Of a DNA stretch of 38,527 bases, positions 1 through 38,184 are shown one piece after another. The DNA is taken from positions 1 through 38,527 of IMG/VR virus record IMGVR_UViG_3300027826_000156. One strand, 5' to 3'. The stretch is from a virus. Lineage: Duplodnaviria; Caudoviricetes. A program made the position numbers and the translations under genes. The first letter of the stretch is position 1. Each line of letters begins with the position of its first letter. The notes beneath the pieces are model-generated. The model had not been told where the DNA came from. It worked only from the letters and a program-made list of their open reading frames with translations, and made no database searches.

Positions 1-1785
1 TTACGCAGTCTTCGCGATCTGAATATGCAGCTCGCGAGCGGCAGCCAGAAACTTCTCAGCGTGAACAAAGGTCACGACCGCACATTCGTAACCGCCTTCC
101 CCAAGCTCGATGAAGCGGTCCGGCATGCCGAGACCTTCCAGTATGCCATTGAGTCCCTGAAGCACGCCTGAAAGATTGCGCCACCGTCCTTCGTGTTGAA
201 TCGAAAACGAATATCCTTTGCCCCGGTGAACGAGCAGCAGCCGCAACTCTTCGCCACTCGTTTCAACGACCTGCGCGACATCCTCAACGTCGAAACGGCC
301 ATTGGTTATCTTGGCTAGGTCTTCGATGAGGCGCTCGTGCTCGGCAGGGGACGTAACTGTCTTGCAGACCACTGCGGTCAGACAATTCGGTGGTTCGCTA
401 AGAATGTTCCAAACGAACAACTCACCATTAAAATCCGCCCGCCACTTTTCCTCGAGCTTCTCGATCGCTGCTTCGCTTATTTCCTTGTCGCCACACGCTC
501 GCCGTAGCTTCGCGACCACCTCCCTTGGTCCGATGTCGTTCAGCAGCCAGTGAACCACCATTGCTGTTTTCGAGTCTAGACGCGCTTGAATGTCCGCCGC
601 GAGAGCTTTCGCCTGTCCGCCGCAGGCGAGAAACGTCCGCACAACAACTGAGATATTCTTCGCGCCTTCGCGCGCAATTTCCCGGGCGAGCGTGTCGACG
701 ATCATGGGATCGACTGCACCGTCGACAAGCGCTCCCAACCCGTCTAATGCCGCGTCGCGTAAATCAGGATCAGAAAGTGCCGAGAGGAGTCGCGGAATGC
801 CATTCCGACCTTCGAGTTGCGCGAGCCGCTTGAGAGCCTCGCCACGGATATACCATTCCACCTTCGAGGCGATGACGCCCCGCAAGAGATCGGCTTCTTC
901 GGGTAATTGAGCTTTGCGGACCGCCTTAAGGCAATTCCAGACGTGATTGGCGATTTCCGACCCGCTCGCCAAATTACGACGCACAAACCGCACAGCCACG
1001 GCTCCCGCGCGCGCTCGCGTTTCTATATCGTGGCTCTCGCACAAACGTTCCAACGCGACGATGAGATGATAGTGTTTCGGGCGTCGCGGAAAATCTGGCC
1101 GGGCCAGCATCTCCTCGATGACGAACACGGCGCCACGGTCCCGGCCAGATCGCCCGAGCGCTATCGCAGCTTCCGCGCGCACATCATCGCGGCTGTCCTC
1201 AAGGAGTTGCGCCAAGCGGTCAAAGGCGCGCGGTGTTGCCAGGTAGTTCATCACCATTAGCGCGCGTTCGCGTGTCCAGGGATCGGCATCGGCGACCGAA
1301 GGTTCAAGGGCCGTCAGGATAGCGCCGGCGTCAATTGCTAGGCTGTAAGACCGTGTTCGATTGCCAATGCCGGAGCTGATCAAGCGGTCTAATGCGCCGC
1401 GGCGCGTCTCGGGCTGCTGCGACTGCAGGCAATCGACTAATGTCGCGCAGCCGAGAGGATCACCGAACTTCAGCAACGCTGACGCTGCATTGACCCGAAC
1501 AACTCCGTTTTGCGCGTTCACCATTGCCCGGAGCGCCGGCAAAACAAGTTCGCGTTCGGCGGCCGGAACCGTCCCAGGGTCGACGTCGATGTACGCGCCG
1601 CGATCGAGCACCGCGAGGAAGCGCCTTGAGTCGAAGGCGCGCTTCTTCGCCAAGCGGCGTGCTTTTTCGGCGATGTCATCGCTATCGCTCACCGCCCGCA
1701 CTCCTACGGCTATGTTCTTGTTATGTTCCCATAGAGTCTGTCGCGCGTCAACCGAAATCGTTGACCGTTCCTTCGGGTTCGCCAT
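1..1785 (-). CDS. HEAT/PBS-lyase repeat protein, possibly immunity-associated
   Basis: 594-aa ORF with repeated helical motifs (VRVNAASALLKFGD, VRAEAAIALGRSG, LRDAALDGLGAL). TAA stop at 1-3. Directly downstream of two Imm52-like genes. Confidence 0.75.
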   Translation of the reverse strand: MANPKERSTISVDARQTLWEHNKNIAVGVRAVSDSDDIAEKARRLAKKRAFDSRRFLAVLDRGAYIDVDPGTVPAAERELVLPALRAMVNAQNGVVRVNAASALLKFGDPLGCATLVDCLQSQQPETRRGALDRLISSGIGNRTRSYSLAIDAGAILTALEPSVADADPWTRERALMVMNYLATPRAFDRLAQLLEDSRDDVRAEAAIALGRSGRDRGAVFVIEEMLARPDFPRRPKHYHLIVALERLCESHDIETRARAGAVAVRFVRRNLASGSEIANHVWNCLKAVRKAQLPEEADLLRGVIASKVEWYIRGEALKRLAQLEGRNGIPRLLSALSDPDLRDAALDGLGALVDGAVDPMIVDTLAREIAREGAKNISVVVRTFLACGGQAKALAADIQARLDSKTAMVVHWLLNDIGPREVVAKLRRACGDKEISEAAIEKLEEKWRADFNGELFVWNILSEPPNCLTAVVCKTVTSPAEHERLIEDLAKITNGRFDVEDVAQVVETSGEELRLLLVHRGKGYSFSIQHEGRWRNLSGVLQGLNGILEGLGMPDRFIELGEGGYECAVVTFVHAEKFLAAARELHIQIAKTA

Positions 1786-1818
1786 CGGGGAAAGCGCTTA
1801 CCGTCGTAGCTAGGCCAA

Positions 1819-2634
1819 TCAGCCGCTCCCGCCGCGCGGCTGCCAACCAGTGCACGCGATCATGGTCTCGGCGAGAATGCGCGCGCGCCGCACGTGCTCG
1901 GGGTCGGTTGGATTCAGCCTGTCCGTAGTGGCACTCATCAGCAACCCGCCCTTGGGGGTGCGTTCAGTGAGGATTTCGGGAGACACCTTGAGGTCAGCCG
2001 CATGCTGTGCCGACAGGTAAATGATCCATGGCACGTGAAAAACTGATTTGGGGAACGTCGGGTCAATGGGGACCTGAAGAGCGCTATCTACTCTGAACGC
2101 CGGGACGCCGGGCCCGAAATCGATAGGAACCATGACCGCATCATTTCGGTATGCGGTCGCGTAAGCCCACTGCGCATCCCATACCGTACTGATGGCGAGC
2201 AGCGCGGCCTTGAACAACGGATACGTCACGATCGATAAATCGGATGGGAGATCGTATTCTCCTAACGAAAGCTCGAAGTGCTGGTCGCTGGACGATGCTG
2301 CAAGCGACACATGGCGAGGACCTCTCGCCCCGGCCACGGCTATCACGAAATGTCCATTTTCTGGACAGGGTTTGTTAAAGTCGTCCACGTAGACACCGCT
2401 TTCAACAATCTCAGCAATGCGTTTGCGCCCGATGGCAAGCGGCACGAATTCTGATCTATGCTCTTCGGGGATCTGCCAAGCCCCGGTGAACTGCCAACCT
2501 TCAAAAAGGGAGGCGATGCCACCCAGTGCATCGAGCGTCTGCAAGAACTTTTCCCCGATGACAGCAGGCTTTTCATCGGCCCGACCTACCCACCGACCCC
2601 GGACGAAATAGCGATAATTTATCGTCGTCATCAT
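1819..2634 (-). CDS. Imm52-like immunity protein (second copy)
   Basis: Paralogue of 2787-3578 (F.QTLD.L..I, IVTYP.FKAALLAI...W, PW..YLSA, RTP.GGLLM.A..DRL.P..P.H). Start moved to ATG 2634, which follows AAGGAG. Confidence 0.75.
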   Translation of the reverse strand: MMTTINYRYFVRGRWVGRADEKPAVIGEKFLQTLDALGGIASLFEGWQFTGAWQIPEEHRSEFVPLAIGRKRIAEIVESGVYVDDFNKPCPENGHFVIAVAGARGPRHVSLAASSSDQHFELSLGEYDLPSDLSIVTYPLFKAALLAISTVWDAQWAYATAYRNDAVMVPIDFGPGVPAFRVDSALQVPIDPTFPKSVFHVPWIIYLSAQHAADLKVSPEILTERTPKGGLLMSATTDRLNPTDPEHVRRARILAETMIACTGWQPRGGSG

Positions 2635-2704
2635 CGGCCGCTCCTTACCCAGGGAACGTAAGCGACTGTGATACCCTTGAGGCCCGATTTGCGCCCCGAC
2701 GCGA

Positions 2705-2751
2705 GTTCTTGTTATGTTCCCATGCGTGCTTGGCACGCGTCAAGGTGAAAT
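2705..2751 (-). pseudogene. Degenerate remnant of the 5' end of the HEAT-repeat gene
   Basis: 2705-2723 is identical to 1714-1732 (GTTCTTGTTATGTTCCCAT, encoding WEHNKN). Similarity continues with indels for about 28 nt. Confidence 0.6.
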
Positions 2752-2786
2752 AATGAGCCATACAATTCATGGGCTGAGATCACGCG

Positions 2787-3578
2787 CTAAGCGTGCTTCG
2801 ATGAGTAGCCCCTGCACGCGATCAGCGTCTCGGCGAGAACTCGTGCGCATCTTATATGGGCGGGGTTGGCGGGGTCGAGCCGATCTTCGGCTGCAATCAT
2901 CAGCAATCCGCCGTCGGGGGTGCGCTGCGTTTGTATTTCGGACGTCACCTTAAGTCTGGCGACGCACGGGGCTGAGAGATAGAGAAGCCAGGGGATGTAA
3001 AAGTCGTCTGGAAACGTCGGATCGCCGGGGACCTGCCGCACGCCTTTCACCTGGTTTGCTTCCAGGCTCCCTAGCTTGATCGGCACGAGGACCGAGCCCA
3101 CCCTGTGGGCGTAGGCGAACGCGTATTGCGGGTGCCAAGCCGCAATGATCGCGAGCAACGCCGCCTTAAAGCGGGGATAGGTGACGATTGCCAGATCAGG
3201 CGCCACCTTGTAATCGCCGACCTCAAGCGTCGTACTGCTGCTACGTTTTCCGCCGGCCACAACCCTGAAGCTCACGTTTCGCGGGTTTATATTCTTTTTT
3301 GTTCTTGCCGTTACATAATAGCCAAAGTCTGGATCGGGCCCGCCGGCATCGTCGCGTGCGACATTGTTTTCGATGATCTCCACAATCCGTGATCGTGCTG
3401 CAGCGAGAGGACTCGATGACACGGCGTGCGCATCAATGATCGACCAATTCGCATAAAGCGGATCAATTCTGCTCAAAGAATCGAGCGTCTGCACAAACCT
3501 CGTGTCCAAGGAGGCTGGCGATTCCCTGCGCACCCCGCAAATCGAGCAAATTCCATATGTATAATACGGCTCGCTCAT
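2787..3578 (-). CDS. Imm52-like immunity protein, cognate to the upstream toxin
   Basis: ATG 3578 overlaps the toxin stop (ATGA). C-terminal W..YL...T..GG.L..A..RLDP.NP.H pattern typical of Imm52. Confidence 0.78.
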   Translation of the reverse strand: MSEPYYTYGICSICGVRRESPASLDTRFVQTLDSLSRIDPLYANWSIIDAHAVSSSPLAAARSRIVEIIENNVARDDAGGPDPDFGYYVTARTKKNINPRNVSFRVVAGGKRSSSTTLEVGDYKVAPDLAIVTYPRFKAALLAIIAAWHPQYAFAYAHRVGSVLVPIKLGSLEANQVKGVRQVPGDPTFPDDFYIPWLLYLSAPCVARLKVTSEIQTQRTPDGGLLMIAAEDRLDPANPAHIRCARVLAETLIACRGYSSKHA

Positions 3579-4969
3579 TTCGGTTCTCGCTCCCATCGCT
3601 TGTCGATAACAACGATTCCGTGCAACTCGGGGTATTTGGGATCTGCAAAGAGTTCTTGCGCATACTTTGCCGCCTCCGGTTCGGCAAAGATCCAGACGAT
3701 CGGCCGCCCGTCACTCGCCGCGACCTGTCTTTCAGCTTTGTCTAGAAACTCTTTCTCTATCGACTCTCTTGGTTCGGGATACTGCAGGAGATATGCGTAT
3801 CTTGGCCCTTTGATTTCGATCAGGATACCACTGTTTCTCTGGCAATCGTCGTAAGTGACCGGCTCCCCATCCTTCTTCGGTAGCTCGTAGACCAACCCAC
3901 TGGGGGTGGGTGGATCATTGATGAATTTTTTAATGTAATCTTCATACTGTCTCGATCTGTTTTCCTCGTAGGATTTACCCTGATCGCTGCCTGGTCTGTC
4001 GGGCACCGGCGGTTCCGGGCAGAGTTTCGGATCATTTTGCTTCACCAGATCGGGAGCGATCGCCGCCAGATCGAACGCGACAATGTCGCCCGGCAGCACT
4101 CGGCCGATAACCTTTTCGTTTATATCGCGGACTTTGTCACCTTGCCGCCACGCGGTAAATGTGCGCCGCGTGCCGTCAGGTGCATTGTATGTGAACTGGA
4201 TAACGGCCTCGTCGCGATTCCAGGAATAACGAAGGCCGGGCACCCCCTCGACTTCGCCTTCGACGTGAATGTCGTTCGATGATGGAATGAACAGCAGCCA
4301 GAAGGTCGCGACGGCTCCGCCTGCGCCGGTGATGAGGGTTAGCGCGAAGCGACCGAGAGAGACCAGGACGGATGGCGCAAGCCTGCTGAGCCAGGACGCA
4401 GCGCCGGGCGCGCCGACGCGCGGCGCGAAGGCCGGCACCGGGAGTTTTGCGGCGTCCACGCCGCCGCGCGTCCACTCGCCGCTCGGCTTGCCGCTGCCGG
4501 CCGGGACGCGGAGTTCCTCGGGATTGTACTGTTTCTCGAGCGCTTCGATGTACGGGGCGTCGAGCTTCAATCCTTTGAATACAGTCCGCGGGCTGCCGCC
4601 GGCTTTCAGGAAAGCGTCGACGATGACGAGGCGCTCGGCGGCATCGTGCGGGTACGGCAGCTCGCCGAGACGGGCGTGCGCCAAGTGGATGTAGGCGAGA
4701 CAATCGTCGCCCGCGTTCCAGGCCTTGGCGGCGCGCTCGATGTTGCCCAGCACGGCCGGATCGATGGCTCTGCCGTAAGCGGCCGACAGCAGCGCCAGCA
4801 CGCGGACTTCATAGCCCTTCGTGGTGCGCAGTTGCCGCGGACCGTCTGCCGGCAGCAGCACGGTGCCGGCCCCGAGCACCAGGCCCTCGGCTGCAATCCG
4901 GAGAACGGTATTGATCGGCTCGATGGGCGCAGGCGCGCGCGAGCCGCCGCGAGGCTGTCGGTTCAGCAC
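3575..4969 (-). CDS. Polymorphic toxin with C-terminal Tox-REase-5-like (PD-(D/E)XK) nuclease
   Basis: C-terminus YEDYI...YDDC...LIEIKG...AERQVAA..GRPIVWIFAE..AA matches the Tox-REase-5 pattern. Tip is visibly AT-richer. Coupled to an Imm52-like gene. Start codon uncertain. Confidence 0.82.
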   Translation of the reverse strand: MLNRQPRGGSRAPAPIEPINTVLRIAAEGLVLGAGTVLLPADGPRQLRTTKGYEVRVLALLSAAYGRAIDPAVLGNIERAAKAWNAGDDCLAYIHLAHARLGELPYPHDAAERLVIVDAFLKAGGSPRTVFKGLKLDAPYIEALEKQYNPEELRVPAGSGKPSGEWTRGGVDAAKLPVPAFAPRVGAPGAASWLSRLAPSVLVSLGRFALTLITGAGGAVATFWLLFIPSSNDIHVEGEVEGVPGLRYSWNRDEAVIQFTYNAPDGTRRTFTAWRQGDKVRDINEKVIGRVLPGDIVAFDLAAIAPDLVKQNDPKLCPEPPVPDRPGSDQGKSYEENRSRQYEDYIKKFINDPPTPSGLVYELPKKDGEPVTYDDCQRNSGILIEIKGPRYAYLLQYPEPRESIEKEFLDKAERQVAASDGRPIVWIFAEPEAAKYAQELFADPKYPELHGIVVIDKRWEREPK

Positions 4970-5820: not shown

Positions 5821-6150
5821 CTACTGAAAGTGCGAGAGCGTCGCGGTCACCGCCCATTTGATCGCGGCCTCCACGATCCAGCCCAGCAGAACAACGCTGG
5901 CAAACCCAATCGACGCCCACGTCACCAGCTTTGAACGCGCCAGCTCGAGTGCGGCGACGGTCGGCCGTATCGCCTCGACCGACGCCGCATGCTCGTCGAG
6001 TTTTTGCACGAGATCGTTGAGCGCGGTGCGTTGCTCGGCGTAGCGCCGTTCCTGCAGCTTCTGATTATCGGCAATGCGGCGCTGAATATCGGCGACGCTG
6101 GCGCGTAACCGTCCGATCGCTTCGCTGATGTCGTCGAGCTTGCCGGCCAT
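5821..6150 (-). CDS. Phage coiled-coil membrane protein, last gene of the lysis cassette
   Basis: MAGKLDDISEAIGRL... coiled coil plus C-terminal TM helix; start overlaps lipase stop (TGATG). Confidence 0.7.
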   Translation of the reverse strand: MAGKLDDISEAIGRLRASVADIQRRIADNQKLQERRYAEQRTALNDLVQKLDEHAASVEAIRPTVAALELARSKLVTWASIGFASVVLLGWIVEAAIKWAVTATLSHFQ

Positions 6151-6818
6151 CAGGCAGCAGTCTCCTGTTTGTCGTGCCGCGCCAGATACGCGGCGACGTC
6201 GGCCATGTAACCTTCGATGTGATGGCAGGCGAAACGGTCGGCTTGCGCTTTGCCGATGCGGATCGGCGGATCGCGGCTGTCGAGAAACGCCCATTCTGGC
6301 GGCACGTCGAACGGCACCGCCGGCACCGGATCGTTGCCGCGCACGTATTGGCGCACCGGCACGTCCTTCAAGCACGCGACGAAAGCCGCCATGCCGAAGC
6401 GCGGCGCCCCGAAGGTGACGATCGCCGCCGGCGGCCGGCCGGCAAGCTTCAGCAATGCGCCGACGCCGACGGCGAGCGCGCCACCCAGAGAGTGCCCGGT
6501 GACCAGGACCGGCAGCGTCGCCGAAGAGCGCCCCAGCTCTTGCAGCAGCGCATCGAGGATACTCTCGGCAGCGTCGAGAAAGCCCGCATGACAGCGGCCG
6601 AGCTGCGCATGCTCGCGCACCGCGATCGGCGCAAAGAAAAAATCACGCAGCCAATCCTGCACGGTGACCGAGCCGCGAAAGGCGACGACGAGCGCACCGT
6701 CGCCGCCGCTGAACTCGGCGGTGACGCGGCAGTTCACGCCGCTTGCCGGCACCGGCACGGTCGGCGGCAGCTTGTAGGTCGCCGCGCAGGCCGCAACCAA
6801 GTCGACGTCGGTGATCAT
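6150..6818 (-). CDS. Class 3 lipase (alpha/beta hydrolase)
   Basis: VVAFRGS...DWLRD, HAGF, VTGHSLGGALA, TFGAPR, DPVP and late His motifs. Confidence 0.9.
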   Translation of the reverse strand: MITDVDLVAACAATYKLPPTVPVPASGVNCRVTAEFSGGDGALVVAFRGSVTVQDWLRDFFFAPIAVREHAQLGRCHAGFLDAAESILDALLQELGRSSATLPVLVTGHSLGGALAVGVGALLKLAGRPPAAIVTFGAPRFGMAAFVACLKDVPVRQYVRGNDPVPAVPFDVPPEWAFLDSRDPPIRIGKAQADRFACHHIEGYMADVAAYLARHDKQETAA

Positions 6819-6833
6819 GGCGATCGCCCGCAA

Positions 6834-7751
6834 TCAAGGCGTCAAGGTCAGCGCCGGCAGCGCGATCGGCGCGGCGGCCGCGGCGCAGGGCGGACAAATC
6901 GCGGCGAGGCCGGCGGGCGCGATCTTCACCCCGATCATCGCCATGGTCTGGATCAAGGTATTGACTTCGTCGCCGAGCAACGGCGCGCAGCCGAGTTTCA
7001 GGTAAGTCGGCAGTCCGGCCTTGAGCTGTGCCACGAAATCGCGTTTGCGCTGAAACAGCTGAAAGCCAACCAGCTTGCCGGACGCCGGCTGGAACGTCGG
7101 CGTCGACTGCAGAAATTTGATCAGCGCCGGGTAGCAGGCATGCGCGATCGGATCGCGAACGACCGCGTCGATTGCAGCCGTCGGCGGCGTCGCGTTTGGA
7201 TTAGCGGGGATCGCCGGCGTCACCACCGCGCCGGCGTCGGCGTCGGCAGCCTGGATGTCGGCGATGACCGCGGCGACGTTCTCTGCCTTCACTTTCTCGA
7301 GCTGATCCATGAATTGCGACAGCGGATCGCCCGAGTGTGCCGGTGCCGGCAGGACCGCGGCCGGTTTCGGCTTCAGTAGCGGAATCGGCAGCTTGGGCTG
7401 GGCGTAACCCGGGTTGATCGCGACGACTGACGCCAGTGCCAGCGCAAGCGCGATCACAGCGGCCGAACTGATGCTCGGGCCCGGAAGTCTCGATTTGGCG
7501 TGGCCGGCTTCGGGCAGCAGGATGGCGATCAGGCCGCCTACGCCCATGCCGATCATGGTGATGTATTTGACGAGGTCGGCGCCGTCGCCCGACGGGATGA
7601 GGTGAAACAACGCCGCCGCGGCGGCAAGCGACGACAGCCCCGCATAGGTGGATGGTTCGCGCAGCCGCGCGCCGAGCCAGGAAATCTCCGCTTCGACTTT
7701 CTGCCGATCGATCGCCGGCGCAGCCTTCGCCGTACCCTGACTGTTGGTCAT
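6834..7751 (-). CDS. Membrane protein with holin-like N-terminus and exported C-terminal domain
   Basis: WLGARLREPSTYAGL plus two TM helices, then a signal-like hydrophobic stretch; immediately downstream of the endolysin; GGAG RBS before ATG 7751. Confidence 0.55.
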   Translation of the reverse strand: MTNSQGTAKAAPAIDRQKVEAEISWLGARLREPSTYAGLSSLAAAAALFHLIPSGDGADLVKYITMIGMGVGGLIAILLPEAGHAKSRLPGPSISSAAVIALALALASVVAINPGYAQPKLPIPLLKPKPAAVLPAPAHSGDPLSQFMDQLEKVKAENVAAVIADIQAADADAGAVVTPAIPANPNATPPTAAIDAVVRDPIAHACYPALIKFLQSTPTFQPASGKLVGFQLFQRKRDFVAQLKAGLPTYLKLGCAPLLGDEVNTLIQTMAMIGVKIAPAGLAAICPPCAAAAAPIALPALTLTP

Positions 7752-7777
7752 GGCAATGCTCCGTTGCTTTGTGGAAT

Positions 7778-7858
7778 CGTAGGATGGGTAGCGCCGCAGC
7801 GCGTAACCCACCGAGCGGCATGGTGGGTTACGCCGCTTCGCGGCTAACCCACTCTACG
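7778..7858. repeat. GTAG-type REP doublet (REPIN-like)
   Basis: CGTAGGATGGGTAGC...GCGTAACCCACC / GGTGGGTTACGC...GCTAACCCACTCTACG: two inverted palindromic units with GTAG/CTAC ends, intergenic. Confidence 0.75.
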
Positions 7859-7866
7859 CAACAGCG

Positions 7867-8547
7867 TTACGCGGCGGCCGCGCGCAGCGCGCCGGACCAG
7901 GCCGCCGCAAGCTCTGCGGCGGCGCCGTTGAAGGCATTAAGATCGGCGCCGTTTTGCAGTCCTGGCGCGCTATGCGGCCGCGGCCCGACGCCGTCGCCCG
8001 TGTATTGCAGCAAAAAATTGCTGGTCCAGGGCGGGATCGGCGGCACGCGCCGGAACAGCTCGGCGTTGTCCGCCGGCTGCGATCCGATGTAGCGGCACTG
8101 CCACAGCGGCGCGACCGCGGCCATGTCGATCCATTTGGCAGCGTGCGGCTTGACCTGTTCGCGGATGCGATTGCCGCCATAGATGCCGCAGGCGCGGCCG
8201 CGCTTTTGCGCAACACGATCGAGAAATTCGTAAGCTTGCTCGCCGGTCATTTGCGAATGGGCATTGTCCTCGAAATCGAGCCAGGCGCTGTCGGCGTCAT
8301 CGAGCCGCGCGTAGGCGAGAAACGCGGCGACGTTGGCGGCGACGTCGTCATGCGTGGCGAAGTCATAAGCGCCCCAGCGCAGGCCGGCGTTCTTCGCTGC
8401 GGCCATGCGCGCGGCATATTTCGGGTCGCCGACCGCAACGCCTTGGCGCGCCTTGTGGATGACGCCGACAAAGCCCGCCTGTTTCAGTTCGGAAAAATTC
8501 ACCGGATTGAAATGCGCGATGTCGGCGACGAGCGGAATGATCGCCAT
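7867..8547 (-). CDS. GH25 muramidase (endolysin)
   Basis: DIAHFN, VIHKARQG, GAYDF, WLDFE (DxE), LLQYT and DLN motifs; AGGAG RBS. Confidence 0.88.
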   Translation of the reverse strand: MAIIPLVADIAHFNPVNFSELKQAGFVGVIHKARQGVAVGDPKYAARMAAAKNAGLRWGAYDFATHDDVAANVAAFLAYARLDDADSAWLDFEDNAHSQMTGEQAYEFLDRVAQKRGRACGIYGGNRIREQVKPHAAKWIDMAAVAPLWQCRYIGSQPADNAELFRRVPPIPPWTSNFLLQYTGDGVGPRPHSAPGLQNGADLNAFNGAAAELAAAWSGALRAAAA

Positions 8548-8699
8548 GGGTTCTTCTCCTTTCGTTGCATTTGTTCGGCTGTTTGTTCGGCTGCGAGCGC
8601 ATCGCATTTGGCCGCGTAGGCGCGTATGTCAGCCCTGAGCACGCGCAGCCATGCGCGTCGCACCGCCGCATCGCGGCGAGTCTGTGGGGCCTCGCTCAT
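8499..8699 (-). CDS. Small hypothetical protein
   Basis: ATG 8699 overlaps the previous stop (ATGA); fills the gap to the endolysin but overlaps it by about 50 nt. Confidence 0.35.
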   Translation of the reverse strand: MSEAPQTRRDAAVRRAWLRVLRADIRAYAAKCDALAAEQTAEQMQRKEKNPWRSFRSSPTSRISIR

Positions 8700-11162: not shown

Positions 11163-11167
11163 GATCT

Positions 11168-27618: not shown

Positions 27619-27640
27619 CACCGACCCACAGTGACTTGTA

Positions 27641-29421: not shown

Positions 29422-29886
29422 CTACCAGTCGACTAGTTTTCCTCGCCTCGCGCCCTCATAGGTGAGGTCCTGGTACTCCTTAGGGAAATATTGCCGCTGC
29501 AGGTCATCGACAATTTCGTCGGCGCGAATCGAGATGCCCATATCGGGCCAATCTTCGTGCCCTCGTGTTGTCACTGCAAGGTCAATTTGCCATCCTGGAA
29601 AATCTTTGACCAGTTCTTGGAGAGCGTTCACAACGGGCGTGCGCAAGAGCTTTAGATTGTCGACAAAGACACCAACTATCGGATACTCGTTATAATCGCC
29701 GTTGAGATGGTAGTCACCATAAGGTTGCCCCGGGAGATAATCAGGCCGACCAAAGCGCTCAAGCAGCTTCTCAACTCGATCTTGCAGGCGCTCGAACACG
29801 GCAAACTGTTCAGTCTGGCGACGATCGTATTCGTCTCGACTCATCGAGTCCATGTCGCGTCGAGTTATTGTGTTGTTATTATTCAC
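29422..29886 (-). CDS. Immunity protein cognate to the portal-fused toxin (unassigned family)
   Basis: GTG start overlapping the portal stop; small, acidic, AT-richer; two paralogues downstream. Confidence 0.78.
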   Translation of the reverse strand: MNNNNTITRRDMDSMSRDEYDRRQTEQFAVFERLQDRVEKLLERFGRPDYLPGQPYGDYHLNGDYNEYPIVGVFVDNLKLLRTPVVNALQELVKDFPGWQIDLAVTTRGHEDWPDMGISIRADEIVDDLQRQYFPKEYQDLTYEGARRGKLVDW

Positions 29887-31897
29887 CACCTCTGCCTCCT
29901 CGTCGCCAGGGACCATAACGCCATATATATCTCGATCTCTCACGCTTAATCTTCGCGTTAAAATCACGAATCCTAGGGTCAGTTGAATTTTCAATCTCTC
30001 GCAAAACTTCCTGTGCGTGTTCAATGGTCATTTGTTCTTCTGTAATATTTTTTCTTTTAAGGTACTTGTCAAGGAGCTCGTTGAGCGCATCATCATACTG
30101 CCTATGTTCTTTGGTATTATAATTTACACTTGGATCAGCAAGAGCCCCCGAAAGGGAATCATCGAAAAACTCCTTTACTGCATCTGAGAAATTTCTTTTC
30201 GTGAAAATCTTTTTTGTCATCCAGTGGTGACCTTTGGCGTATGGCTGGTAAGGTATTACCGCGTGATCGAGCGTGTCCCACGGTTCTGATGTGGGCGCCG
30301 CGTCTTTGGGCCGGAACTGGCCGCCTTTGCGGTCTGGAGTGCCAGCAGGCCAGCCTGGATGCTTTGGATCGTCCGGACTCGCTTTGGCAACAACTGTCGT
30401 GCGACCGCCCGCATCACCACCGTGCACGCCCGGGTTGGATGCTTCATTGGTCCCCTCCCCACCCGCATTCGCTTCGATCGGCACGTAGCCGGTGGCGGTG
30501 AGCACCATCGGCCGGTCGGCAGCGGGATTTTGGAACGGGGCGAGGCCGAGCGCGTCGCGCAACTCGTTGAGCGTCGCGGCGCCGATCTTGACCCGCGCTT
30601 CGAGCGCCGCCTCGGCTTGCGCGGCGCCGGTGTCCTCGTCGAGCCAGGCCAGCTCCAGGTCGGGCGAGCCGAACTCGTCGGCGATCACCTCGTCGACCAG
30701 GTCCTTGACCCACTCCTTGGTCGGCTCCAGCCCCTCCTCTTCGGCCTGCGCCGACTGATTGTCGGCGGTGGCGCGGTTCATCAGCTTCACCGCCCATTGC
30801 GGCGGCACCGAAAACGCGTAGCAGATGATGCGCGCGAGCCACTCGTCGAAGTCCTGCTTGTGCTCCGGCTCCTTGGTCTGGTGCACCTTCACCGCGCTCT
30901 CGCCCGGCACGAACTTGGCGCGCCGGCGCTTTGCGAGGTCGCCGGCGAACTCGGTGTCCCAGTAATCCTGGAACTGCCGGATCTGGTCCGGCGTCCAGCC
31001 CGCCGACACGCCGATCAGCGCGTCCGGGATCGAGCCTTCGGAGAAATAATCGAGCTGCCAGAGCTGGCGGCGCAGCGCGATGTTGACCGTCATCAGCACC
31101 TGCTGCACCGGCGAGTAGCCGTAGACCCGGTGGGCGCGCACGTTGCGCGGCCGATAGATGATGTCGCGCACCGCGTAGTCGACCGCCGGCAGTCCTTTGA
31201 GCACCTGCTGGTAGGCCGGCGGATAGATCGTGCTGCCGTCGGGCGCGGCGTAGGGCTGCGGCGTGCGGCCCCAATCATCGATGACGCGCTTGATGGTGGC
31301 GCCGTCGAGCTGATGCAGCGCGCACAGCTGCCCGGCGCGGGTGCGCCGGCAATACAGCGTTGCCGCGTCGATGACGAACATGTCCTCGAGCAGCGCGCGC
31401 AGCCAGGTCTTCCAGCGCGTGACGCCATCGGGCTTTTGCCAGAATTTTTCGATGGCGGCGATGCGCGCGCCGGTGTCGACGGCAAGCGCGGCGGACTTGC
31501 GGCTCCCCCCTTCCCTGCCCCGCGCGCGGGCGAGCGACGGCAGCGGGCCGCGTGGTCGGATGCACCAGCGCTGCCGCTCCATCTGGTCCTTGCGGGTCTC
31601 GATGACGAGGCGCAAGAGATCGTAGGCGTCGGCAAAACCGCGCAGCTCGGCAAAGCCGATCGGCTCGTAGGCGCGCGGCCGGACCGAGAGATTGTAGCCC
31701 GGCGGAAAATCGAAGCGCCGCCCGGCGACTTCGGGCGGCGCGATCGGCCGCAGCGGATCGAGCGGGCCGAACCAGTCGGCGCCGCCGCCGCGCGCAATGC
31801 CGGCGCCGGTGCCCGCGGCGGTGCCGTACGACACGGCAATCTGATACGGCGACAACGGCCAGTTTGGCTGGCCGGCGCCGCGGCTCGGCTCGGTCAT
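29879..31897 (-). CDS. Phage portal protein fused to a C-terminal HH/HNH-like putative toxin domain
   Basis: Portal motifs (LRLVIETRKDQ, LLEDMFVIDA, LDGATIK, YGYSPVQQ, YFSEGSIPD, ICYAFSVPP, TLNELR..LGL.P), then linker and AT-richer tip GHHW...NYN..EHRQY. Confidence 0.85.
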   Translation of the reverse strand: MTEPSRGAGQPNWPLSPYQIAVSYGTAAGTGAGIARGGGADWFGPLDPLRPIAPPEVAGRRFDFPPGYNLSVRPRAYEPIGFAELRGFADAYDLLRLVIETRKDQMERQRWCIRPRGPLPSLARARGREGGSRKSAALAVDTGARIAAIEKFWQKPDGVTRWKTWLRALLEDMFVIDAATLYCRRTRAGQLCALHQLDGATIKRVIDDWGRTPQPYAAPDGSTIYPPAYQQVLKGLPAVDYAVRDIIYRPRNVRAHRVYGYSPVQQVLMTVNIALRRQLWQLDYFSEGSIPDALIGVSAGWTPDQIRQFQDYWDTEFAGDLAKRRRAKFVPGESAVKVHQTKEPEHKQDFDEWLARIICYAFSVPPQWAVKLMNRATADNQSAQAEEEGLEPTKEWVKDLVDEVIADEFGSPDLELAWLDEDTGAAQAEAALEARVKIGAATLNELRDALGLAPFQNPAADRPMVLTATGYVPIEANAGGEGTNEASNPGVHGGDAGGRTTVVAKASPDDPKHPGWPAGTPDRKGGQFRPKDAAPTSEPWDTLDHAVIPYQPYAKGHHWMTKKIFTKRNFSDAVKEFFDDSLSGALADPSVNYNTKEHRQYDDALNELLDKYLKRKNITEEQMTIEHAQEVLREIENSTDPRIRDFNAKIKRERSRYIWRYGPWRRGGRGGE
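30455..31201. repeat. 747-bp direct repeat, copy 2 (portal 3' part)
   Basis: Matches 28612-29358. Confidence 0.9.
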
Positions 31898-31970: not shown

Positions 31971-32720
31971 TTACTCGGTCAGACTGATGCTGCCGATGTT
32001 GTTGGCGCCGTCGGCGATGGCCTGGAAATCCAACTCGGCCACCGTGAATTTCTGATTGGAGAACGGCAGCGCCAGTTTCGGAGCGACGCAGGCGTTGAGC
32101 TTGACCACGATGTCCTTGTTGACGCCGAAATAATTGAACGTCTCCTTCAGCGACACTTCGAACAGCGGCACCGGGCCCATCAGCTGATTGGCGAGCGCGA
32201 TCTTGTTGCCGGAGGCGACGCTGTAACTATAGTAGATCACCACCGCCGCGCCGTTGTCGCCGGCATTGAACGTATAGGTGCCCGGGCTGCCCGACGGCGC
32301 AATGTACTGGCCCTGCGTCGGCGAAGCGGCGACCGGCACGAGCTGCGCGCCGGTCGTGGCATAGAACACGCCGAAATCCTCGAGGAACGTCGCGCCGTTG
32401 GCCACGATGACGGCCGCCGCAGTGACGGTGTCGGTCTCGCCGGTGGTCATCTCGATCATGCTGTTGGCGGTGAGCGTCTGGCCGAGGAACAGATTGTTGA
32501 TCTGCGACGCCTGCAGGCGCGCGAACTTGGCCTTGCCGGCGATCTTGAACTCGCCGCCGCCGGCCGCGACCGGCATGTTGTACTGGCCGACCAACAGCTC
32601 GATCTTGCGGTCGAAATCGAGCGTGACGTCCTGCAAGGTGCCGAGCAGCGCCGGTGGCGTGCCGGTCACGTCGGTGCGCTTGCCAACCAAGGTGCCGCTG
32701 CCGAAAGCGAATTGGGTCAT
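31971..32720 (-). CDS. Major tail (tube) protein
   Basis: FAFGSG.L, LGTLQDVTLDF, L.GQY..PVA, I.GKAKFA, C-terminal F...ELDFQA; follows the tail completion gene; AGGAG RBS. Confidence 0.75.
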   Translation of the reverse strand: MTQFAFGSGTLVGKRTDVTGTPPALLGTLQDVTLDFDRKIELLVGQYNMPVAAGGGEFKIAGKAKFARLQASQINNLFLGQTLTANSMIEMTTGETDTVTAAAVIVANGATFLEDFGVFYATTGAQLVPVAASPTQGQYIAPSGSPGTYTFNAGDNGAAVVIYYSYSVASGNKIALANQLMGPVPLFEVSLKETFNYFGVNKDIVVKLNACVAPKLALPFSNQKFTVAELDFQAIADGANNIGSISLTE

Positions 32721-32861: not shown

Positions 32862-33308
32862 TTACGGCACGAGGATCTGGAACGGAATCGCCGCCACCGC
32901 CTTGCCGTCGATGTCGCCGGTGTCGACGAAGACCGGGCCGAGCGGGTAGCAGTGCGCCACCAGCCCGCCGAGCGTTTGCCGGTTGCCGTTGAGCGCATCG
33001 GCGCCGCCGGGCGCCACCGCCGCATCGATGGCGTCGAGCACGGCGTTCATGGCGCTGTCCGGCACGTCCTTGGGATCGAGCCCGGCCGACAGATAGACGA
33101 ACACGTGGACGTTGATGGTCAGCGTCGGCAGCCCCTCGCTCTGCCGGGCCCGCACCTCGCCGGTCTTGAGCACGGTCAGAAACGGCATCTGCGTCTCGTT
33201 GACCTGGTCCCAATGCACGAAGCGCCGGCTGGTCGCGGCAAAATCCACCGCGCCGGCGACCAGCGCGAAGAACGCAGCCGAAATCTGCTCGCGCGTGACG
33301 GTGCTCAT
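32862..33308 (-). CDS. Tail completion/terminator-like protein
   Basis: 148 aa, REQI..A.F, RRFVHW..V...P.L, LDAIDAA, TLGGLV.HC; upstream of tail tube; GAGGAG RBS. Confidence 0.7.
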   Translation of the reverse strand: MSTVTREQISAAFFALVAGAVDFAATSRRFVHWDQVNETQMPFLTVLKTGEVRARQSEGLPTLTINVHVFVYLSAGLDPKDVPDSAMNAVLDAIDAAVAPGGADALNGNRQTLGGLVAHCYPLGPVFVDTGDIDGKAVAAIPFQILVP

Positions 33309-33505: not shown

Positions 33506-33952
33506 TTATATATCTCTACCCATCTGAGACAACCCCACCCTTAAAGCAGCCGGGTCAAAGTCTTCCCAGGAGACTAAATTGCTGGGCTCTCCCGTCTGAA
33601 GAAAATAAAATAAGATCGCCTTCAGCTCATCGAAGTGAATGATGTAGCGTGCCGGGGTTGGCGTCGGCGTATCGGCAGTGAGAAACTCAACGCAGCCGCG
33701 CTGCAGAGGGGGTTGTGCCGACATTGCCATGAGATACGGCGGATTGCCATCGGAGGAACTGTATTGAGCACAACAAAATCGTTCACCGATCCCTGTCAAG
33801 ATTTCGAATCCGTTATCTCCTTTCAGCTTGGCAATAAAAGGCGGCTTACGTTTCGTCTCGTCAAGCAACTCGGCAAGTTGTTCGCTCGCAGCGACAACGG
33901 CGCCGTGCATCGGATCGAGCTTGTCCTGGTGATTGAAGTATTGAATTCTCAT
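33506..33952 (-). CDS. Imm1-family (DddI-like) immunity protein
   Basis: ATGA overlap with deaminase toxin; C-terminal EF...TPT...ARY.I...EL......F.QTGE....V.WE pattern of Imm1. Confidence 0.8.
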   Translation of the reverse strand: MRIQYFNHQDKLDPMHGAVVAASEQLAELLDETKRKPPFIAKLKGDNGFEILTGIGERFCCAQYSSSDGNPPYLMAMSAQPPLQRGCVEFLTADTPTPTPARYIIHFDELKAILFYFLQTGEPSNLVSWEDFDPAALRVGLSQMGRDI

Positions 33953-35010
33953 TGTCGTTCGCCTTTGAAAGGCACCCTTTGACCGTTCGGCAATATGACA
34001 TACAAGACACCGCCGGGAGGAACCATACTTTTCAGTTGATTGTTGCACTGGTCGCATATTTCGGGATTGTTGATCTCCACCGACGCCTCCGAAATGCCGT
34101 ACAGCCGCATTATTGCCGCTGCTTGGGCCTCCACGTGAGATCGAACGTTTCCATCAAAGCCAGGCGTTCCTTTTGGTATTGCTGCTGTTGGCCCGTCATA
34201 CCCGCTCTGCAGTTCTATCGGCGTCATCCCTGGCGCCCGGAAGATACCGGAAGTTTTGCCGCCAGGCTCGTATGGTGCGAGCTGCGGCTCTGATTGGCTC
34301 ATGAATGGCAACTTCGATTTCGGATCAGGAGGACTCCAAGTTGGCCGCGCTCCCTGGGGAGCTGCTGGCCTAGCCGGCGCTGGCGCCGGTGCTGGTGGCA
34401 GCAGTCTCGGAATGCCCCCGCCGGGGAAAGGCAACTCAGCCCCTCCTGGAGGACCTGCACCGCCACCGGGAGCGGCCGGCTTTTTTCCCCATGGCCAAAA
34501 CCAAGGCGGTCGACGCTCCGCAACGGGTATGACGGGGATCGCTTCGGTCCTATCTGATTCCGGTGCGAACCAGCCGGGATTGGGCGGCGCGCCGGTGCGC
34601 GGATGCTTTGCGGGATCCCTGAATTTGAGCAGCCGGCTGCGGTGCAGCTCGAGCGCGCGGCGGCCAATGTCTTCGTCGGCCTCTCTGCCCGTCGTCAGCG
34701 GCGGGTCGGGAAACTGCATCTGCACGGTGGCAATCGCGGCCATCGCCAGATCGCCGCGATTGAAGGCCGCCGCGATGAGGGCGAGCGAGGCAGCTTTCGC
34801 GGCAACATCGATTGGCAGACCGTATTGCGTCGACAGGTCTTCGTTGAGTTCGGGTATTGCGCGAACGACCCATTGCCTTGTCGCGCCGGTGCCAACGGCT
34901 TGCAGCAACGGGACATCGCCGACGAACGCACCGGTGACGCCGCACGACACGGCGCTGCTGGCGCGCTCCGCGGCCAGCGAAAAGGCACGCGCACCCGGCA
35001 TCGCAAACAT
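33949..35010 (-). CDS. Polymorphic toxin with DddA-like (SCP1.201) cytidine deaminase tip
   Basis: GKTSGIF...LQSG...HVEAQAAAIMR..GISEASV.INNPEICDQC...MVPPG..L.V..P.G (HxE + CxxC). Confidence 0.88.
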   Translation of the reverse strand: MFAMPGARAFSLAAERASSAVSCGVTGAFVGDVPLLQAVGTGATRQWVVRAIPELNEDLSTQYGLPIDVAAKAASLALIAAAFNRGDLAMAAIATVQMQFPDPPLTTGREADEDIGRRALELHRSRLLKFRDPAKHPRTGAPPNPGWFAPESDRTEAIPVIPVAERRPPWFWPWGKKPAAPGGGAGPPGGAELPFPGGGIPRLLPPAPAPAPARPAAPQGARPTWSPPDPKSKLPFMSQSEPQLAPYEPGGKTSGIFRAPGMTPIELQSGYDGPTAAIPKGTPGFDGNVRSHVEAQAAAIMRLYGISEASVEINNPEICDQCNNQLKSMVPPGGVLYVILPNGQRVPFKGERQ

Positions 35011-35275: not shown

Positions 35276-35817
35276 CTACGATACCTTCAGATCGTGCTCA
35301 GTAGGCGTAGACGCACTGAGCGCCAGTCTGCCGCCTCTTCGAGCGAAATCGAGCGCCTCGGGTCCTAAGAAAAACGCGCCAAGCCTCTTAAAGCTCTGCC
35401 GAAACGGCCTTGTGAAAAATTCGTAAAGATCCTTAGACATGGGACTGTCAGAGATCGTTCCAATCGTTCCATACAAAATGATATCGTCTCAATACCGGCC
35501 ACCCGGGCCGAAAACAATCGTGTCCTGATTGAGCAACTGACTAATCGAGTAAAGAATGCCGCCGCGCCGCTGAGGAACGTCTTCCACGCACACGGTCGCG
35601 CCTTCCGGCGAAACAAGATATGCGGGGTTCGCTATCGACGTTGGATGCAGCGCTGTCCCGAAGTCCGGGATATCGACATAGGACCGATGAGTTTGGGCGC
35701 GTTCGTCTCGAATAAACCGGTCCGGGTGTATTGCAGCTTCCTCTGCATCTCCAGCGATGAAAGCAGCGGGCGCAGATCGGTAGCTGTCGCATAAAACATA
35801 ATGAGCCTGCGAGTCAT
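35276..35817 (-). pseudogene. Immunity paralogue of 36608-37150, disrupted
   Basis: One-base deletion near 35696 and in-frame TGA at 35489-35491 relative to the intact copy. Confidence 0.82.
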
Positions 35818-35940
35818 CGGGTGCGCCTTTTCGGAATCAGGATCAGCGTATCGTTCGGATATTTGGCGCGAATCCTGGCGACCGCAGCAGCCTTTCTCGG
35901 TGTCGGGCTTCCGTCGGCAAGCATATCGATTGCTTCAACG
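35814..35940 (-). pseudogene. Orphan toxin C-terminal fragment
   Basis: Translates as VEAIDMLADGSPTPRKAAAVARIRAKYPNDTLILIPKRRTR*, matching the end of 37147-38184. Confidence 0.82.
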
Positions 35941-36001
35941 CCGCTCGCGAGTCCGTGCAGCGTTTCATGCGTCCAGGGTCAACAACACCGTCGCGGCATT
36001 G

Positions 36002-36541
36002 TCACACCTTGAAATCAAATTCCGAAGGGCTTGATGCCGCGGCTGTGAGTCTAAAACCAGCCTTCCCGAGCTGCAATGCCTCAGGTCCCACAAAGAACTC
36101 CTCGACCCTATCAAAATGCTCGCGAAGCGCTTTGAGCATAGACTTATAGAGGCTTATGGAAGCCGCTGTGTCGGATATGGTGCCGATCATTCCATCCAAG
36201 ATGATGTCGCTGCCGTAGCGACCGCCAGGCCAGAGGGCGACGGTGTCCTCGTTTAGCTGTTGATCAAAGGCAAAGCGATGTTTACCAGTGTTTTGAATGA
36301 TCCGACGAGCGCGTATTGGGGTTCCACGCAGCGATACGAGGTACGATGGATTTGCAATGGCCGTCGGATGGCTTGCCACTCCGAAGTTTGGGATTTTCGT
36401 ATACGATCCATAGGTCCGAGGCTTGTTCGTTTCGAACTGCCCCGTCTGTGTATATTCGAGCTCTTTCTGACTTTCCAGCGTGGATAGGACAAGAGCAAGG
36501 TCCTTCGCTGTCGCGTAAAACATACTTTGGTTTCGGGTCAT
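36002..36541 (-). CDS. Immunity paralogue (divergent, intact)
   Basis: MFYAT..DL...LS.LE, IP.FG.A.HPT.IAN, DQ.LNEDT, F..GPEAL motifs shared with 36608-37150. Confidence 0.78.
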   Translation of the reverse strand: MTRNQSMFYATAKDLALVLSTLESQKELEYTQTGQFETNKPRTYGSYTKIPNFGVASHPTAIANPSYLVSLRGTPIRARRIIQNTGKHRFAFDQQLNEDTVALWPGGRYGSDIILDGMIGTISDTAASISLYKSMLKALREHFDRVEEFFVGPEALQLGKAGFRLTAAASSPSEFDFKV

Positions 36542-36579
36542 TGCGCGGGTCTTTTCGGGATGAGAATGAGTGTATCGCT
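36538..36579 (-). pseudogene. Minimal toxin tip remnant
   Basis: SDTLILIPKRPAQ* with ATGA overlap onto the next immunity gene. Confidence 0.7.
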
Positions 36580-36607
36580 GCCGCACTGCGTTAAACAAAT
36601 TACAGCG

Positions 36608-37150
36608 CTACGATACCTTCAGATCGTGCTCAGTAGGCGTAGACGCACTGAGGGCCAGTCTGCCGCCTCTTCGAGCGAAATCGAGCGCCTCGGGCCCTAG
36701 GAGAAACTCGTCAGTCCTCTTAAAATTTTCTCGAAATGGCCTTGTGAAAAAATTGTAAAGACCTTTGGACATGGAGCTGTCATAGACCGTTCCAATCCTT
36801 CCATACAAAAGAATATTGTTTCCATGGCGGCCTCCTGGGCCAAAAACAATCGTGTCCTCATTGAGCAATTGATCAATCGCGTAATAGACGCCGCCCCGTC
36901 GCTGAGGAACGTCTCTAATACACAGCGTCGCGCCTCGCGGCGAAACAAGATATTCGGAGTTCGCTATCGACGTTGGATGCCGCGCTATTCCGAAATCCGG
37001 AATATCGACATAGGACAGATAAGTTTGTGGCGTGCTCGTCTCGAATAAACCGGCCAGGGTGTATTGCAGGTTCCTCTCTATCTCCAGCGATGAAAGCAGC
37101 GGGCCTAGATCGGCAGCTGTCGCATAAAACATAATGAGATTGCGCGTCAT
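36608..37150 (-). CDS. Immunity protein cognate to 37147-38184 (unassigned family)
   Basis: ATGA overlap with toxin stop; AT-richer; two paralogues downstream. Confidence 0.8.
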   Translation of the reverse strand: MTRNLIMFYATAADLGPLLSSLEIERNLQYTLAGLFETSTPQTYLSYVDIPDFGIARHPTSIANSEYLVSPRGATLCIRDVPQRRGGVYYAIDQLLNEDTIVFGPGGRHGNNILLYGRIGTVYDSSMSKGLYNFFTRPFRENFKRTDEFLLGPEALDFARRGGRLALSASTPTEHDLKVS

Positions 37151-38184
37151 GGGGAGCGCCTTTTCGGAATCAGGATCAGTGTATCGTTCGGATATTTGGC
37201 GCTAATCCTGGCGGCCGCAGCAGCCTCTCTCGGTGTTGGGCTGCCGTCAGCAAGCGTATCGACTGTTTGAACGCGTGTCACCGCACCAGTCTCTGGGTTG
37301 ACGGCGGTGACGTCAACATATGTTCCCCCGAGACCACGGGGCCCGGGACCTCGAATGTATTCTTCAGGTTTCTGGCCGCCACCTCCAGTGATTTTATATC
37401 CCTGGGCCTCAAGGTCTGCTGCTATCGCGGCGTTCTGCGCGCGGGTTGCTGCACCTCCAAGTCGGCCGCCGCTGCGCGGAGCCGTTCCAAGCTCGGGTTC
37501 AGGAGAGGGGCCCGCTGGAGCTGCTGGCTTAGGTGGCGCTTCGACCGGCAGTCGTGCGACTTCACCTGGAAGTTCTGGTGGACCGCTACTACCAAACCCC
37601 CCGCCCCCGCCCCTGCCGCCACCTTCGACGATAGGGGGCCTCTTGAATGGATCGCCAACCATCGCTGCCGGTAGAGCGGTGATCGATTCCGGCCCGGTGG
37701 GAACTGGCCTCTCGGATTCTCCCGACTCTGGGGCGAACCAGCCGGGATTGGGCGGCGTGCCGGTGCGTGGATGTTTTTCCGGGTCCCAGAATTTGAGCAG
37801 CCGGCTGCGGTGCAGCTCGAGCGCGCGGCGGGCAATTTCATCGTCGGTTTCCCTGCCCTTCGCGAGCGGCGGCGGGTCCGGAAACTGCATCTGCACGGTG
37901 GCAATCGCGGCCATCGCGAGATCGCCGCGATTGAACGCTGCGGCTATCAGCGCTAGCGCGTTCGCTTTCGCAGCGACGTCGATGGGCAGGCCGTATTGGG
38001 TCGACAGTTCGTCGTTGAGCTCGGGTACCGTGCGAACGACCCATTGCGGGTTCGCGCTCGCGCCATCGATGGCCTGCAGCAGCGGAACGTCGCCGACGAA
38101 CACACCATCGGCGCCGCATGAGACGGCATCGCTGGAGCGCTCCGCGGCCAGCGAAAAGGCACGCAAACCCGGCATCGCAAACAT
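37147..38184 (-). CDS. Polymorphic toxin with unassigned, possibly restriction-endonuclease-like tip
   Basis: N-terminal ~150 aa nearly identical to 33949-35010; Pro/Gly linker; tip GGRLG..ATRAQN...GGGG..PEEY...YVDVTA...VQTVD...PRE. Confidence 0.8.
   Translation of the reverse strand: MFAMPGLRAFSLAAERSSDAVSCGADGVFVGDVPLLQAIDGASANPQWVVRTVPELNDELSTQYGLPIDVAAKANALALIAAAFNRGDLAMAAIATVQMQFPDPPPLAKGRETDDEIARRALELHRSRLLKFWDPEKHPRTGTPPNPGWFAPESGESERPVPTGPESITALPAAMVGDPFKRPPIVEGGGRGGGGGFGSSGPPELPGEVARLPVEAPPKPAAPAGPSPEPELGTAPRSGGRLGGAATRAQNAAIAADLEAQGYKITGGGGQKPEEYIRGPGPRGLGGTYVDVTAVNPETGAVTRVQTVDTLADGSPTPREAAAAARISAKYPNDTLILIPKRRSP

Follow-up and report, generated by a model that had tools for sequence, protein, structure and literature searches.

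How might toxins without any recognisable trafficking domain reach another cell when their genes lie among those of a phage tail? The question is raised by the 38,527-nucleotide (nt) record IMGVR_UViG_3300027826_000156 (Duplodnaviria; Caudoviricetes), hereafter called the window, which represents the tail/lysis half of a phage-derived gene cluster. An initial annotation of the window had described three toxin-immunity islands in or beside one tail-lysis block, all on one strand, with four full toxins bearing four different tips, and had proposed that the toxins are loaded into particles through the portal and through a separate N-terminal domain. Gene positions confirmed the islands and their common (minus) strand, profile, motif and fold evidence confirmed the four toxins (T1 to T4), and the comparisons described here support the proposed delivery by particles. 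We consider the element to be a host-kept, MuF-free, capsid-delivered polymorphic toxin system with a probability of about 0.55, whereby packaging, cleavage and killing are inferred. What can be read from the sequences themselves is gene content, toxin-immunity pairing, tip swapping at one junction, a common Lys site, a fixed locus, dispersed carriers and co-occurrence with a capsid. A protease-site signal, a third carrier, dispersed cargo genes and a fixed chromosomal position go beyond the initial annotation.

All named toxin, immunity, tail and lysis genes of the window are encoded on the minus strand. The islands have a guanine-plus-cytosine (GC) content of 0.48-0.56, compared with 0.64-0.70 in the portal core, tail and lysis genes. 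They display the hallmarks of polymorphic toxins, namely a constant carrier with variable tips, cognate immunity genes directly downstream and orphan tip/immunity cassettes. The four tips are PD-(D/E)XK-like, DddA-like, AHH-like and REase-5-like. In island A, T1 (37147..38184) consists of an unnamed N-terminal carrier domain (amino acids (aa) 1-130), the residues LLK with a short motif, a Pro-rich linker and a predicted PD-(D/E)XK nuclease tip. The tip model (predicted local distance difference test score, pLDDT, 87) retrieved mostly proteins of the restriction endonuclease fold in the top Foldseek rows, none of them at E<=0.001. The predicted cognate immunity gene I1 (36608..37150) had no family match in profile searches and comes after this tip in 7/7 other loci. 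Island A also contains two I1 paralogues with a T1-tip remnant in front of each: one at 36002..36598, and a second, frameshifted one at 35276..35978, where the sequence is 87% identical to 36606-37274. T2 (33949..35010) has the same carrier domain, 82% identical to that of T1 over 130 aa, followed by LLK, the motif and a DddA-like deaminase tip (PF14428, E 2e-11; DddA chains of the PDB, E 1.7e-6). Next to it lies an Imm1 gene (33506..33952; PF14430, E 5e-4, just under the cut-off), and Imm1 was found after DddA-like tips in 30/30 cases.

T3 (29879..31897) is the toxin that had been described as fused to a portal, and this was upheld: a full-length portal (PF04860, E 1e-15; phrog_2662) is followed by VAK, the motif and a C-terminal, predicted AHH-like HNH nuclease tip. 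The pattern G-H-H..N..H..Y of this tip agrees with the Tox-AHH motif of PMC3482391; the tip had no Pfam match, and shorter relatives of it amounted to one protein among 43 candidates searched. Its predicted cognate immunity gene I3 (29422..29883) follows this tip family in 8/8 other places. The rest of island B is formed by an orphan cassette (28062..29371) with a portal 3' half (94% identical over 760 nt to the T3 portal), the motif and a frameshifted T3-like tip, by two further I3 paralogues (27160..28072; three in all), and by an orphan immunity gene to which the remnant of a fifth type of tip is fused (26675..27142). In island C, T4 (3575..4969) joins a diverged carrier domain through LEK and the motif to a Tox-REase-5-like tip, which matches two proteins (P0124/P0160) that themselves match PF15648. 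The N-terminal domain of T4 aligned with the T1-type domain at an hhalign probability of 51% (E 1.5e-4), and intermediate homologues bridge the two. Two Imm52 genes follow (1819..3596; PF15579, E 6e-10 and 8.5e-5); Imm52 is a known partner of Tox-REase-5 (PMC3482391), and the immunity family was the same downstream of T4-type tips in 4/7 other loci. A HEAT-repeat protein (1..1785) is a possible orphan immunity protein, and in locus L146 it stands directly after a T4-type tip. The numerous orphan tips and immunity genes mentioned in the initial annotation thus exist as cassettes, while recognisable orphan tips number about four. As had also been noted there, the toxins had no match to type VI secretion system (T6SS), type V secretion system (T5SS), Rhs or MuF profiles in Pfam, PHROGs and NCBIfam. 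The MuF profiles PF04233 and PF06152 gave no match on the window toxins (MuF3 and MuF4 profiles were not searched), and no VgrG/PAAR/Hcp, filamentous haemagglutinin, Rhs repeat or tail sheath was matched among the window proteins scanned.

A short linker motif had been said to be common to all toxins. It is indeed present at the junctions of carriers and tips, at five places in the window, as three variants (W-DP-x-K-HPR..GWF, Y-NP-x-x-PR-VP-x-G..G-x-W and DDP-x-HPGWP..GG-x-F), which are interchangeable and, like the tips, move among carriers. A [LIVFMA]-x-K site was found at most five residues ahead of the motif in 99/119 unique junctions, as opposed to 6.3% of 47,842 background windows. By carrier, the Lys site was present in 13/13 portal, 23/25 coiled-coil and 12/17 unclassified junctions; junctions of T4-type domains had Lys in 7/15 and K or R in 15/15. 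As these homologues are not independent, the stronger point is that unrelated carriers have the Lys site in common. In 21/21 capsid protein sequences with an N-terminus (28 rows, 7 of them without), hydrophobic-x-Lys also closes a variable N-terminal extension. There are few such sites in the capsid body and several in the protease's C-terminal part. Counted over whole proteins, site density showed no clear excess of head over tail proteins, and the hub equals the capsid per lysine; the argument therefore rests on the position of the site. In T4 internal proteins and SPN3US ejection proteins, targeting propeptides are removed by the prohead protease, as are capsid propeptides (PMC7411985), and XkdF is treated as a head-processing peptidase (PMC7824862). 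It can be inferred from the site positions that the XkdF-like protease of the element would cut after Lys; our literature search found no paper on Lys-specific cleavage of the XkdF type.

Tips are swapped among three carrier families, i.e. the portal tail, the unnamed N-terminal domain and a short coiled-coil protein. Arrays of the latter occur on both sides of the capsid gene in relatives, and no motif-bearing copy was found in the window. The N-terminal domain is without a Pfam, PHROG or NCBIfam name and comprises 1,723 clusters at E<=0.001 and 1,052 clusters (50% identity) at E<=1e-10. Toxin-type tips (REase-5, AHH, DddA, EC869-like, HNH, deaminase, DUF4329, metallopeptidase) were recognised on it in 19/78 proteins scanned; 22 tip clusters were present among 102 close homologues, and 53 clusters among 217 tips. 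Tip families are held in common by portal and coiled-coil carriers, by N-terminal domain and coiled-coil carriers, and by the T4-type domain and the portal. Since Pfam recognised only 3/45 portal, coiled-coil and other tips, most of these are toxins by context only. The carrier domain had no match in 50,697 phage records, and the T4-type domain none in plasmids. A model of the carrier domain (pLDDT 83) had no match among viral models at E<=0.001 and a best Z of 2.9 among 48,161 PDB chains, and its structural neighbours in the Atlas are unnamed; such comparisons of models establish neither a known nor a new fold. One Atlas cluster of 309 aa with a similar predicted N-terminal fold (template modelling score 0.61 by query) has a glucosaminidase in 85% of its members, possibly a cell-wall-targeting cargo.

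The initial annotation had suggested inspecting the flanks for capsid, prohead protease, terminase and integrase genes. The window itself contains no terminase, protease, capsid, adaptor or closure gene; head genes were detected in relatives, with no consistent integrase. A genome scan confirmed 155 relatives of the carrier domain, the best 80 of which (75 loci) were kept for locus counts. All loci but two (one Bryobacteraceae and one Binataceae bin) belong to Alphaproteobacteria, mainly Xanthobacteraceae, Roseiarcus, Rhizomicrobium and Methylocapsa. Relatives among soil Xanthobacteraceae and Beijerinckiaceae carry a complete unit of terminase, portal, XkdF-like protease, 524-aa capsid, short tail and lysis genes. 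Structural genes of the window type lie within 10 kb of the N-terminal domain gene in 15/75 genome loci, and these 15 loci include terminase, portal with tip and cassettes, protease, capsid, adaptor, closure, carrier toxins, tail terminator, tube and a short tape measure. In IMG/VR contigs, which are selected for viral genes, the gene of the N-terminal domain carrier comes directly after head closure in 31/31 cases. The toxin families are accordingly linked to phage structural loci elsewhere, and the linkage test by which the initial annotation would have been refuted did not refute it; for stand-alone carriers, the capsid gene usually lies elsewhere in the genome. Portal and coiled-coil carriers are found within the head module, N-terminal domain toxins after head closure and after lysis genes. 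Fusions of portal and tip recur, with an extension of >120 aa in 16/26 portal open reading frames (ORFs) with a recognisable core end.

The protease is a PHROG head maturation protease (PF14550 at E 8e-4, below the cut-off), the capsid had no Pfam or NCBIfam match, and the portal scored 23.9 bits against a TIGR01537 cut-off of 112, so the head is not of the HK97 kind seen in RcGTA. The nearest phages are those of Brevundimonas, ON529863 and ON529867 (portal 49%, capsid about 60%). ON529863 shares the order of structural genes, and the L-x-K sites recur in its capsid, its protease and its portal; this portal ends, after L-x-K sites, in a MuF-like domain (PF04233, E 6e-6, 27.3 bits, below the cut-off of 29.6), which matched only its own record among the loci compared and nothing in the element. 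In relatives with toxin arrays after the capsid gene (L079, L085, L099, L121, L151), the last ~30 capsid codons are repeated ahead of each cassette, and arrays after head closure likewise repeat the 3' end of the closure gene. The arrays appear to grow in tandem by recombination on the end of the upstream gene.

The element seems to occupy a fixed chromosomal site, as read from relatives, the window's own flanks being cut off. The same genes lie upstream of the terminase in four genomes (G034, G048, G491 and G595), and the same host genes beyond the lysis end in five (G050, G663, G491, G034 and G048). The upstream order in G034 is aspS, a small gene, a helix-turn-helix (HTH)-S24 repressor and DUF6362, and a GcrA-like gene is present in G048 and G595. 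An S24 repressor gene also lies a few kb upstream of the terminase, among host genes, in 3/6 further genomes; in G385 the corresponding region is full of transposases. The capsid is 88-90% identical across the fixed-site genomes. No replication genes were found among 129 selected flanking and internal ORFs scanned in relatives, and no serine recombinase near the element in 5/5 genomes. In a whole-genome search, the nearest tyrosine integrase was >40 kb away in 3/5 genomes (G034, G050, G491). GcrA-like and DUF6362 genes were also observed between repressor and terminase at L163:14080-15204, L166:2372-3446 and L154:10067-11240. They are candidate activators of the cluster; no paper with the term DUF6362 was found in our literature search. 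The element is rare, occurring in 0/300 genomes of an even sample of the order and in 16/151 and 4/251 genomes of two families.

We examined whether carrier genes co-occur with the capsid. The capsid search covered 50 of the 75 loci, one per genome, and a match was obtained in 28/50 genomes and in 25/42 of those picked for a distant carrier gene. In the even sample of the order the capsid was found in 0/300 genomes, and within the two families in 7/8 and 3/4 carrier-positive genomes; for the order and the families, fewer candidates were scored in each genome, and at a stricter cut-off, than in the search for capsids with distant carriers. With the families pooled and their centres omitted, 8/10 carrier-positive and 10/390 carrier-negative genomes had the capsid (Fisher p 1e-10, a test that overstates independence because the genomes are related). 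On multi-megabase contigs, carrier genes lie from 0.1 Mb to >1 Mb away from the capsid. Dispersed carrier genes are mostly full-length with a tip, and 12/12 of their loci had no structural gene within ~7 kb and kept the junction of Lys and motif, including two loci in capsid-negative genomes. In L004 and L006, lysis-end genes and several carrier toxins persist where neither capsid nor tube was found; possibly, the particle was lost from these genomes and immunity retained.

Taken as a capsid-delivered toxin system, the element would work as follows. Related soil alphaproteobacteria would keep the particle cluster, and the host would deliver a cocktail of antibacterial toxins through the particle. 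Particle production would fall to a subpopulation that lyses, controlled by the CI-like repressor that relatives carry upstream. Both the coiled-coil carrier and the N-terminal domain would be propeptides that target the capsid and bring the toxin into the prohead, whereas the portal would bear its toxin as a C-terminal extension. The XkdF-like prohead protease would cut at hydrophobic-x-Lys, as in the capsid propeptide, and the freed piece of motif plus toxin would be injected into a rival cell. The short motif would form the new N-terminus and might have a role in retention or ejection. Immunity genes and orphan cassettes would shield kin and, through recombination, be a supply of new tips.

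Several observations weigh against this reading. In relatives, frameshifts or insertion sequences disrupt many genes of the element, and the window portal is displaced, which fits decay; relatives L139, L142, L129 and L012 have a portal without extension; and integrase ORFs do occur, in G048 a short one inside the element, in G595 a multi-copy one at 12 kb from the lysis end. Neither capsid nor tube was found in five carrier-positive genomes (G369, G549, G043, G044, G004), some of them incomplete. At T1-type junctions, 17/83 are without Lys within five residues, many having Lys slightly further up. T4 and Imm52 match the PADLOC candidate PDC-M17A/B, the former in its tip only, and the relatedness of genomes and unequal searches mentioned with the co-occurrence counts belong here as well. 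The element might instead be a temperate prophage, either an ordinary one or one in decay, whose head toxins are of the MuF style and benefit the phage, with scattered carrier genes as debris. Such a prophage would account for a whole structural module in the order of ON529863, for its presence on 31 IMG/VR contigs and for the many frameshifts, and host take-over, the lysogeny decision and killing of non-lysogens have been proposed as roles for MuF toxins (PMC5576092). We consider it unlikely, given the same chromosomal neighbours in different species representatives, the lack of replication genes in the scanned flanks, the 88-90% identity of the capsids of fixed-site genomes, the intact state of most dispersed genes and the lack of carrier-domain matches among phage records.

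Two further explanations dispense with toxin delivery. Selfish toxin-immunity addiction modules could have accumulated in a cluster resembling a gene transfer agent (GTA), whose particle moves DNA and not toxins; low-GC islands, tandem duplications with the 3' end of the upstream gene as homology arm, and carrier genes in genomes without capsid or tube would all be expected from this. Addiction, however, needs no in-frame portal fusion, no Lys site of the capsid propeptide and no genome-level co-occurrence with a capsid, and we hold this explanation to be improbable. Slightly more doubtful still is that the toxins are anti-phage tripwires, latent in the cell until a related phage invades and its prohead protease cuts the Lys site. 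The L-x-K sites of the nearest phage, the stand-alone dispersed copies and the PDC-M17A/B match of the T4 tip and Imm52 speak for it; against it, cognate immunity together with orphan poly-immunity arrays is a hallmark of interbacterial toxins (PMC3482391), 9/12 proteins including T1-T3 had no PADLOC match, and the PDC match is limited to the tip.

Delivery by capsids and portal fusions are already known ideas. A packaging route through MuF has been proposed for toxins in prophage remnants (PMC3482391), MuF toxins of temperate phages have been defined (PMC5576092), and toxicity and immunity have been demonstrated for one of them in work that treats Bxa and Apk2 and states the biological role as unknown (PMC11699363). 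Like these toxins, the element has tips and adjacent immunity genes in a portal-terminase head module and would be packed into heads; unlike them, it uses three other carriers in place of MuF, which it lacks, bears several arrays of toxins and orphan portal cassettes, stands at a fixed site and has scattered cargo. Effector domains fused to portals (PBECR, 2H, Nudix, ART; PMC5512222, PMC9503650) likewise place an enzymatic domain on the portal and are proposed to be packaged and injected. Those are phage effectors directed against the infected host, and the portions of the two papers available to us describe neither cognate immunity nor orphan portal cassettes or carrier exchange. With RcGTA and CcGTA (PMC9632790) the element shares a chromosomal cluster, the lack of detected replication genes, a short tape measure and the GTA-type tail tip, and the HTH-S24 repressor near it has the domain layout of RogA, a repressor of that GTA system (PMC9632790). 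Its head is of another lineage than that of RcGTA, with an XkdF-like protease, a 524-aa capsid and a portal far below the HK97 cut-off, no GafA or GafYZ was identified in the element, and toxin arrays were not found in the GTA descriptions available in PMC9632790. As in T4 and SPN3US, N-terminal propeptides of <=~130 aa are predicted to be cut by the prohead protease at a motif that the capsid has as well (PMC7411985); the sites of those lytic phages end in Glu, whereas here a Lys site is predicted and polymorphic toxins, accompanied by immunity genes, would form the cargo. Extracellular contractile injection systems (eCIS) and tailocins are similar in being host-kept, phage-derived and released by lysis for toxin delivery. 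They differ in that no sheath gene was seen in the element, which keeps capsid, portal and terminase. The element would thus work like a MuF toxin system without being a member, and is GTA-like in its genomics without being RcGTA. A literature search that left subscription journals mostly outside yielded no account of MuF-free carriers, of the Lys junction, of orphan portal cassettes, of a fixed locus or of dispersed cargo, and unexamined supplements and architecture files of PMC3482391, PMC5512222 and PMC5576092 could list these proteins.

The remaining genes of the window form a siphophage-type tail, fibre and lysis block, interrupted by the three islands. The tail terminator (32862..33308; phrog_8150, weakly phrog_4204) is followed on the minus strand by the tail tube (31971..32720; phrog_8234), assigned by position and by gene order as in ON529863, by a presumed pair of tail assembly chaperones (25914..26509; phrog_7947, phrog_8018), likewise assigned by position, and by the 401-aa tape measure protein (24690..25895; phrog_2854). 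The tail tip (17099..24680), of the GTA type also found in RcGTA, comprises distal tail (DUF2460), hub, NlpC/P60, megatron and collar fibre genes (TIGR02217/02218/02219, of which TIGR02218 alone exceeds its cut-off; PF09343, PF09931, PF13550, PF23666, PF07484, with BR0599 and Rcc01698_C). In L016:5926-8421 and its kin, a gene with GTA TIM-barrel and DUF2460 domains lies between tape measure and distal tail; it is absent from the window. Profile matches within the fibre region (11793..17102) identified accessory genes for a glycosyltransferase, a PhyH dioxygenase and two SGNH proteins, and L164 has an acyltransferase-SGNH gene at the corresponding place. These modification genes might alter the surface for self-exclusion. 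The lysis end (5821..11728), also assigned by profile matches, contains a fibre (Mtd_N), an RlpA-like protein, a GH25 endolysin, a lipase and membrane proteins.

At the right end lies the start of a methyltransferase gene on the plus strand (38348..38527; 98.4% over 247 nt to L108), the rest of which is cut off by the contig end. Two loci, L109 and L108, came from a metagenome scan; the latter is a relative that includes the head half. In L108 the same methyltransferase gene comes after the head-closure gene, so the head half of the window probably lies beyond the contig end. The odd position of the portal next to the tube is not an assembly artefact: contigs of sequencing runs from two studies span the tube-portal junction, and a chimera at this point was rejected. 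Portal pieces also sit between tail terminator and tube in L116, L119, L124, L125 and L128, from which displacement of the portal into the tail block can be assumed to have happened more than once. Palindromic intergenic elements were observed at 23945-24035, 32759-32834 and 7778-7858. The one near 24015 reached a contig depth of thousands in each of the four runs, indicating a highly repeated element of the repetitive extragenic palindromic (REP) kind, and similar-looking palindromes also occur within portal and protease ORFs, where they are read in frame (window ~31480-31546; L011 4005-5054).

Since 2012, the way in which MuF-type toxins reach their target, and with it the use of capsids by bacteria for secretion, has been a matter of hypothesis (PMC3482391, PMC5576092). 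The system offers a sharp test of it, as one predicted protease site is common to the capsid, the portal and two unrelated carriers, and the locus occurs in cultured strains (L035, L068). From the large unnamed carrier family, new domains of toxins and immunity proteins can be drawn, and GTA-like elements would be linked to interbacterial killing. More tentatively, and at somewhat less than even odds, a widespread lineage of soil alphaproteobacteria may have domesticated a siphophage as a capsid-based toxin gun, into which any gene product with the N-terminal domain, Lys site and motif would be loaded in trans, giving a programmable cocktail of nucleases and deaminases. If this is true, the carrier could serve as an address label to load chosen proteins into a non-replicating particle.

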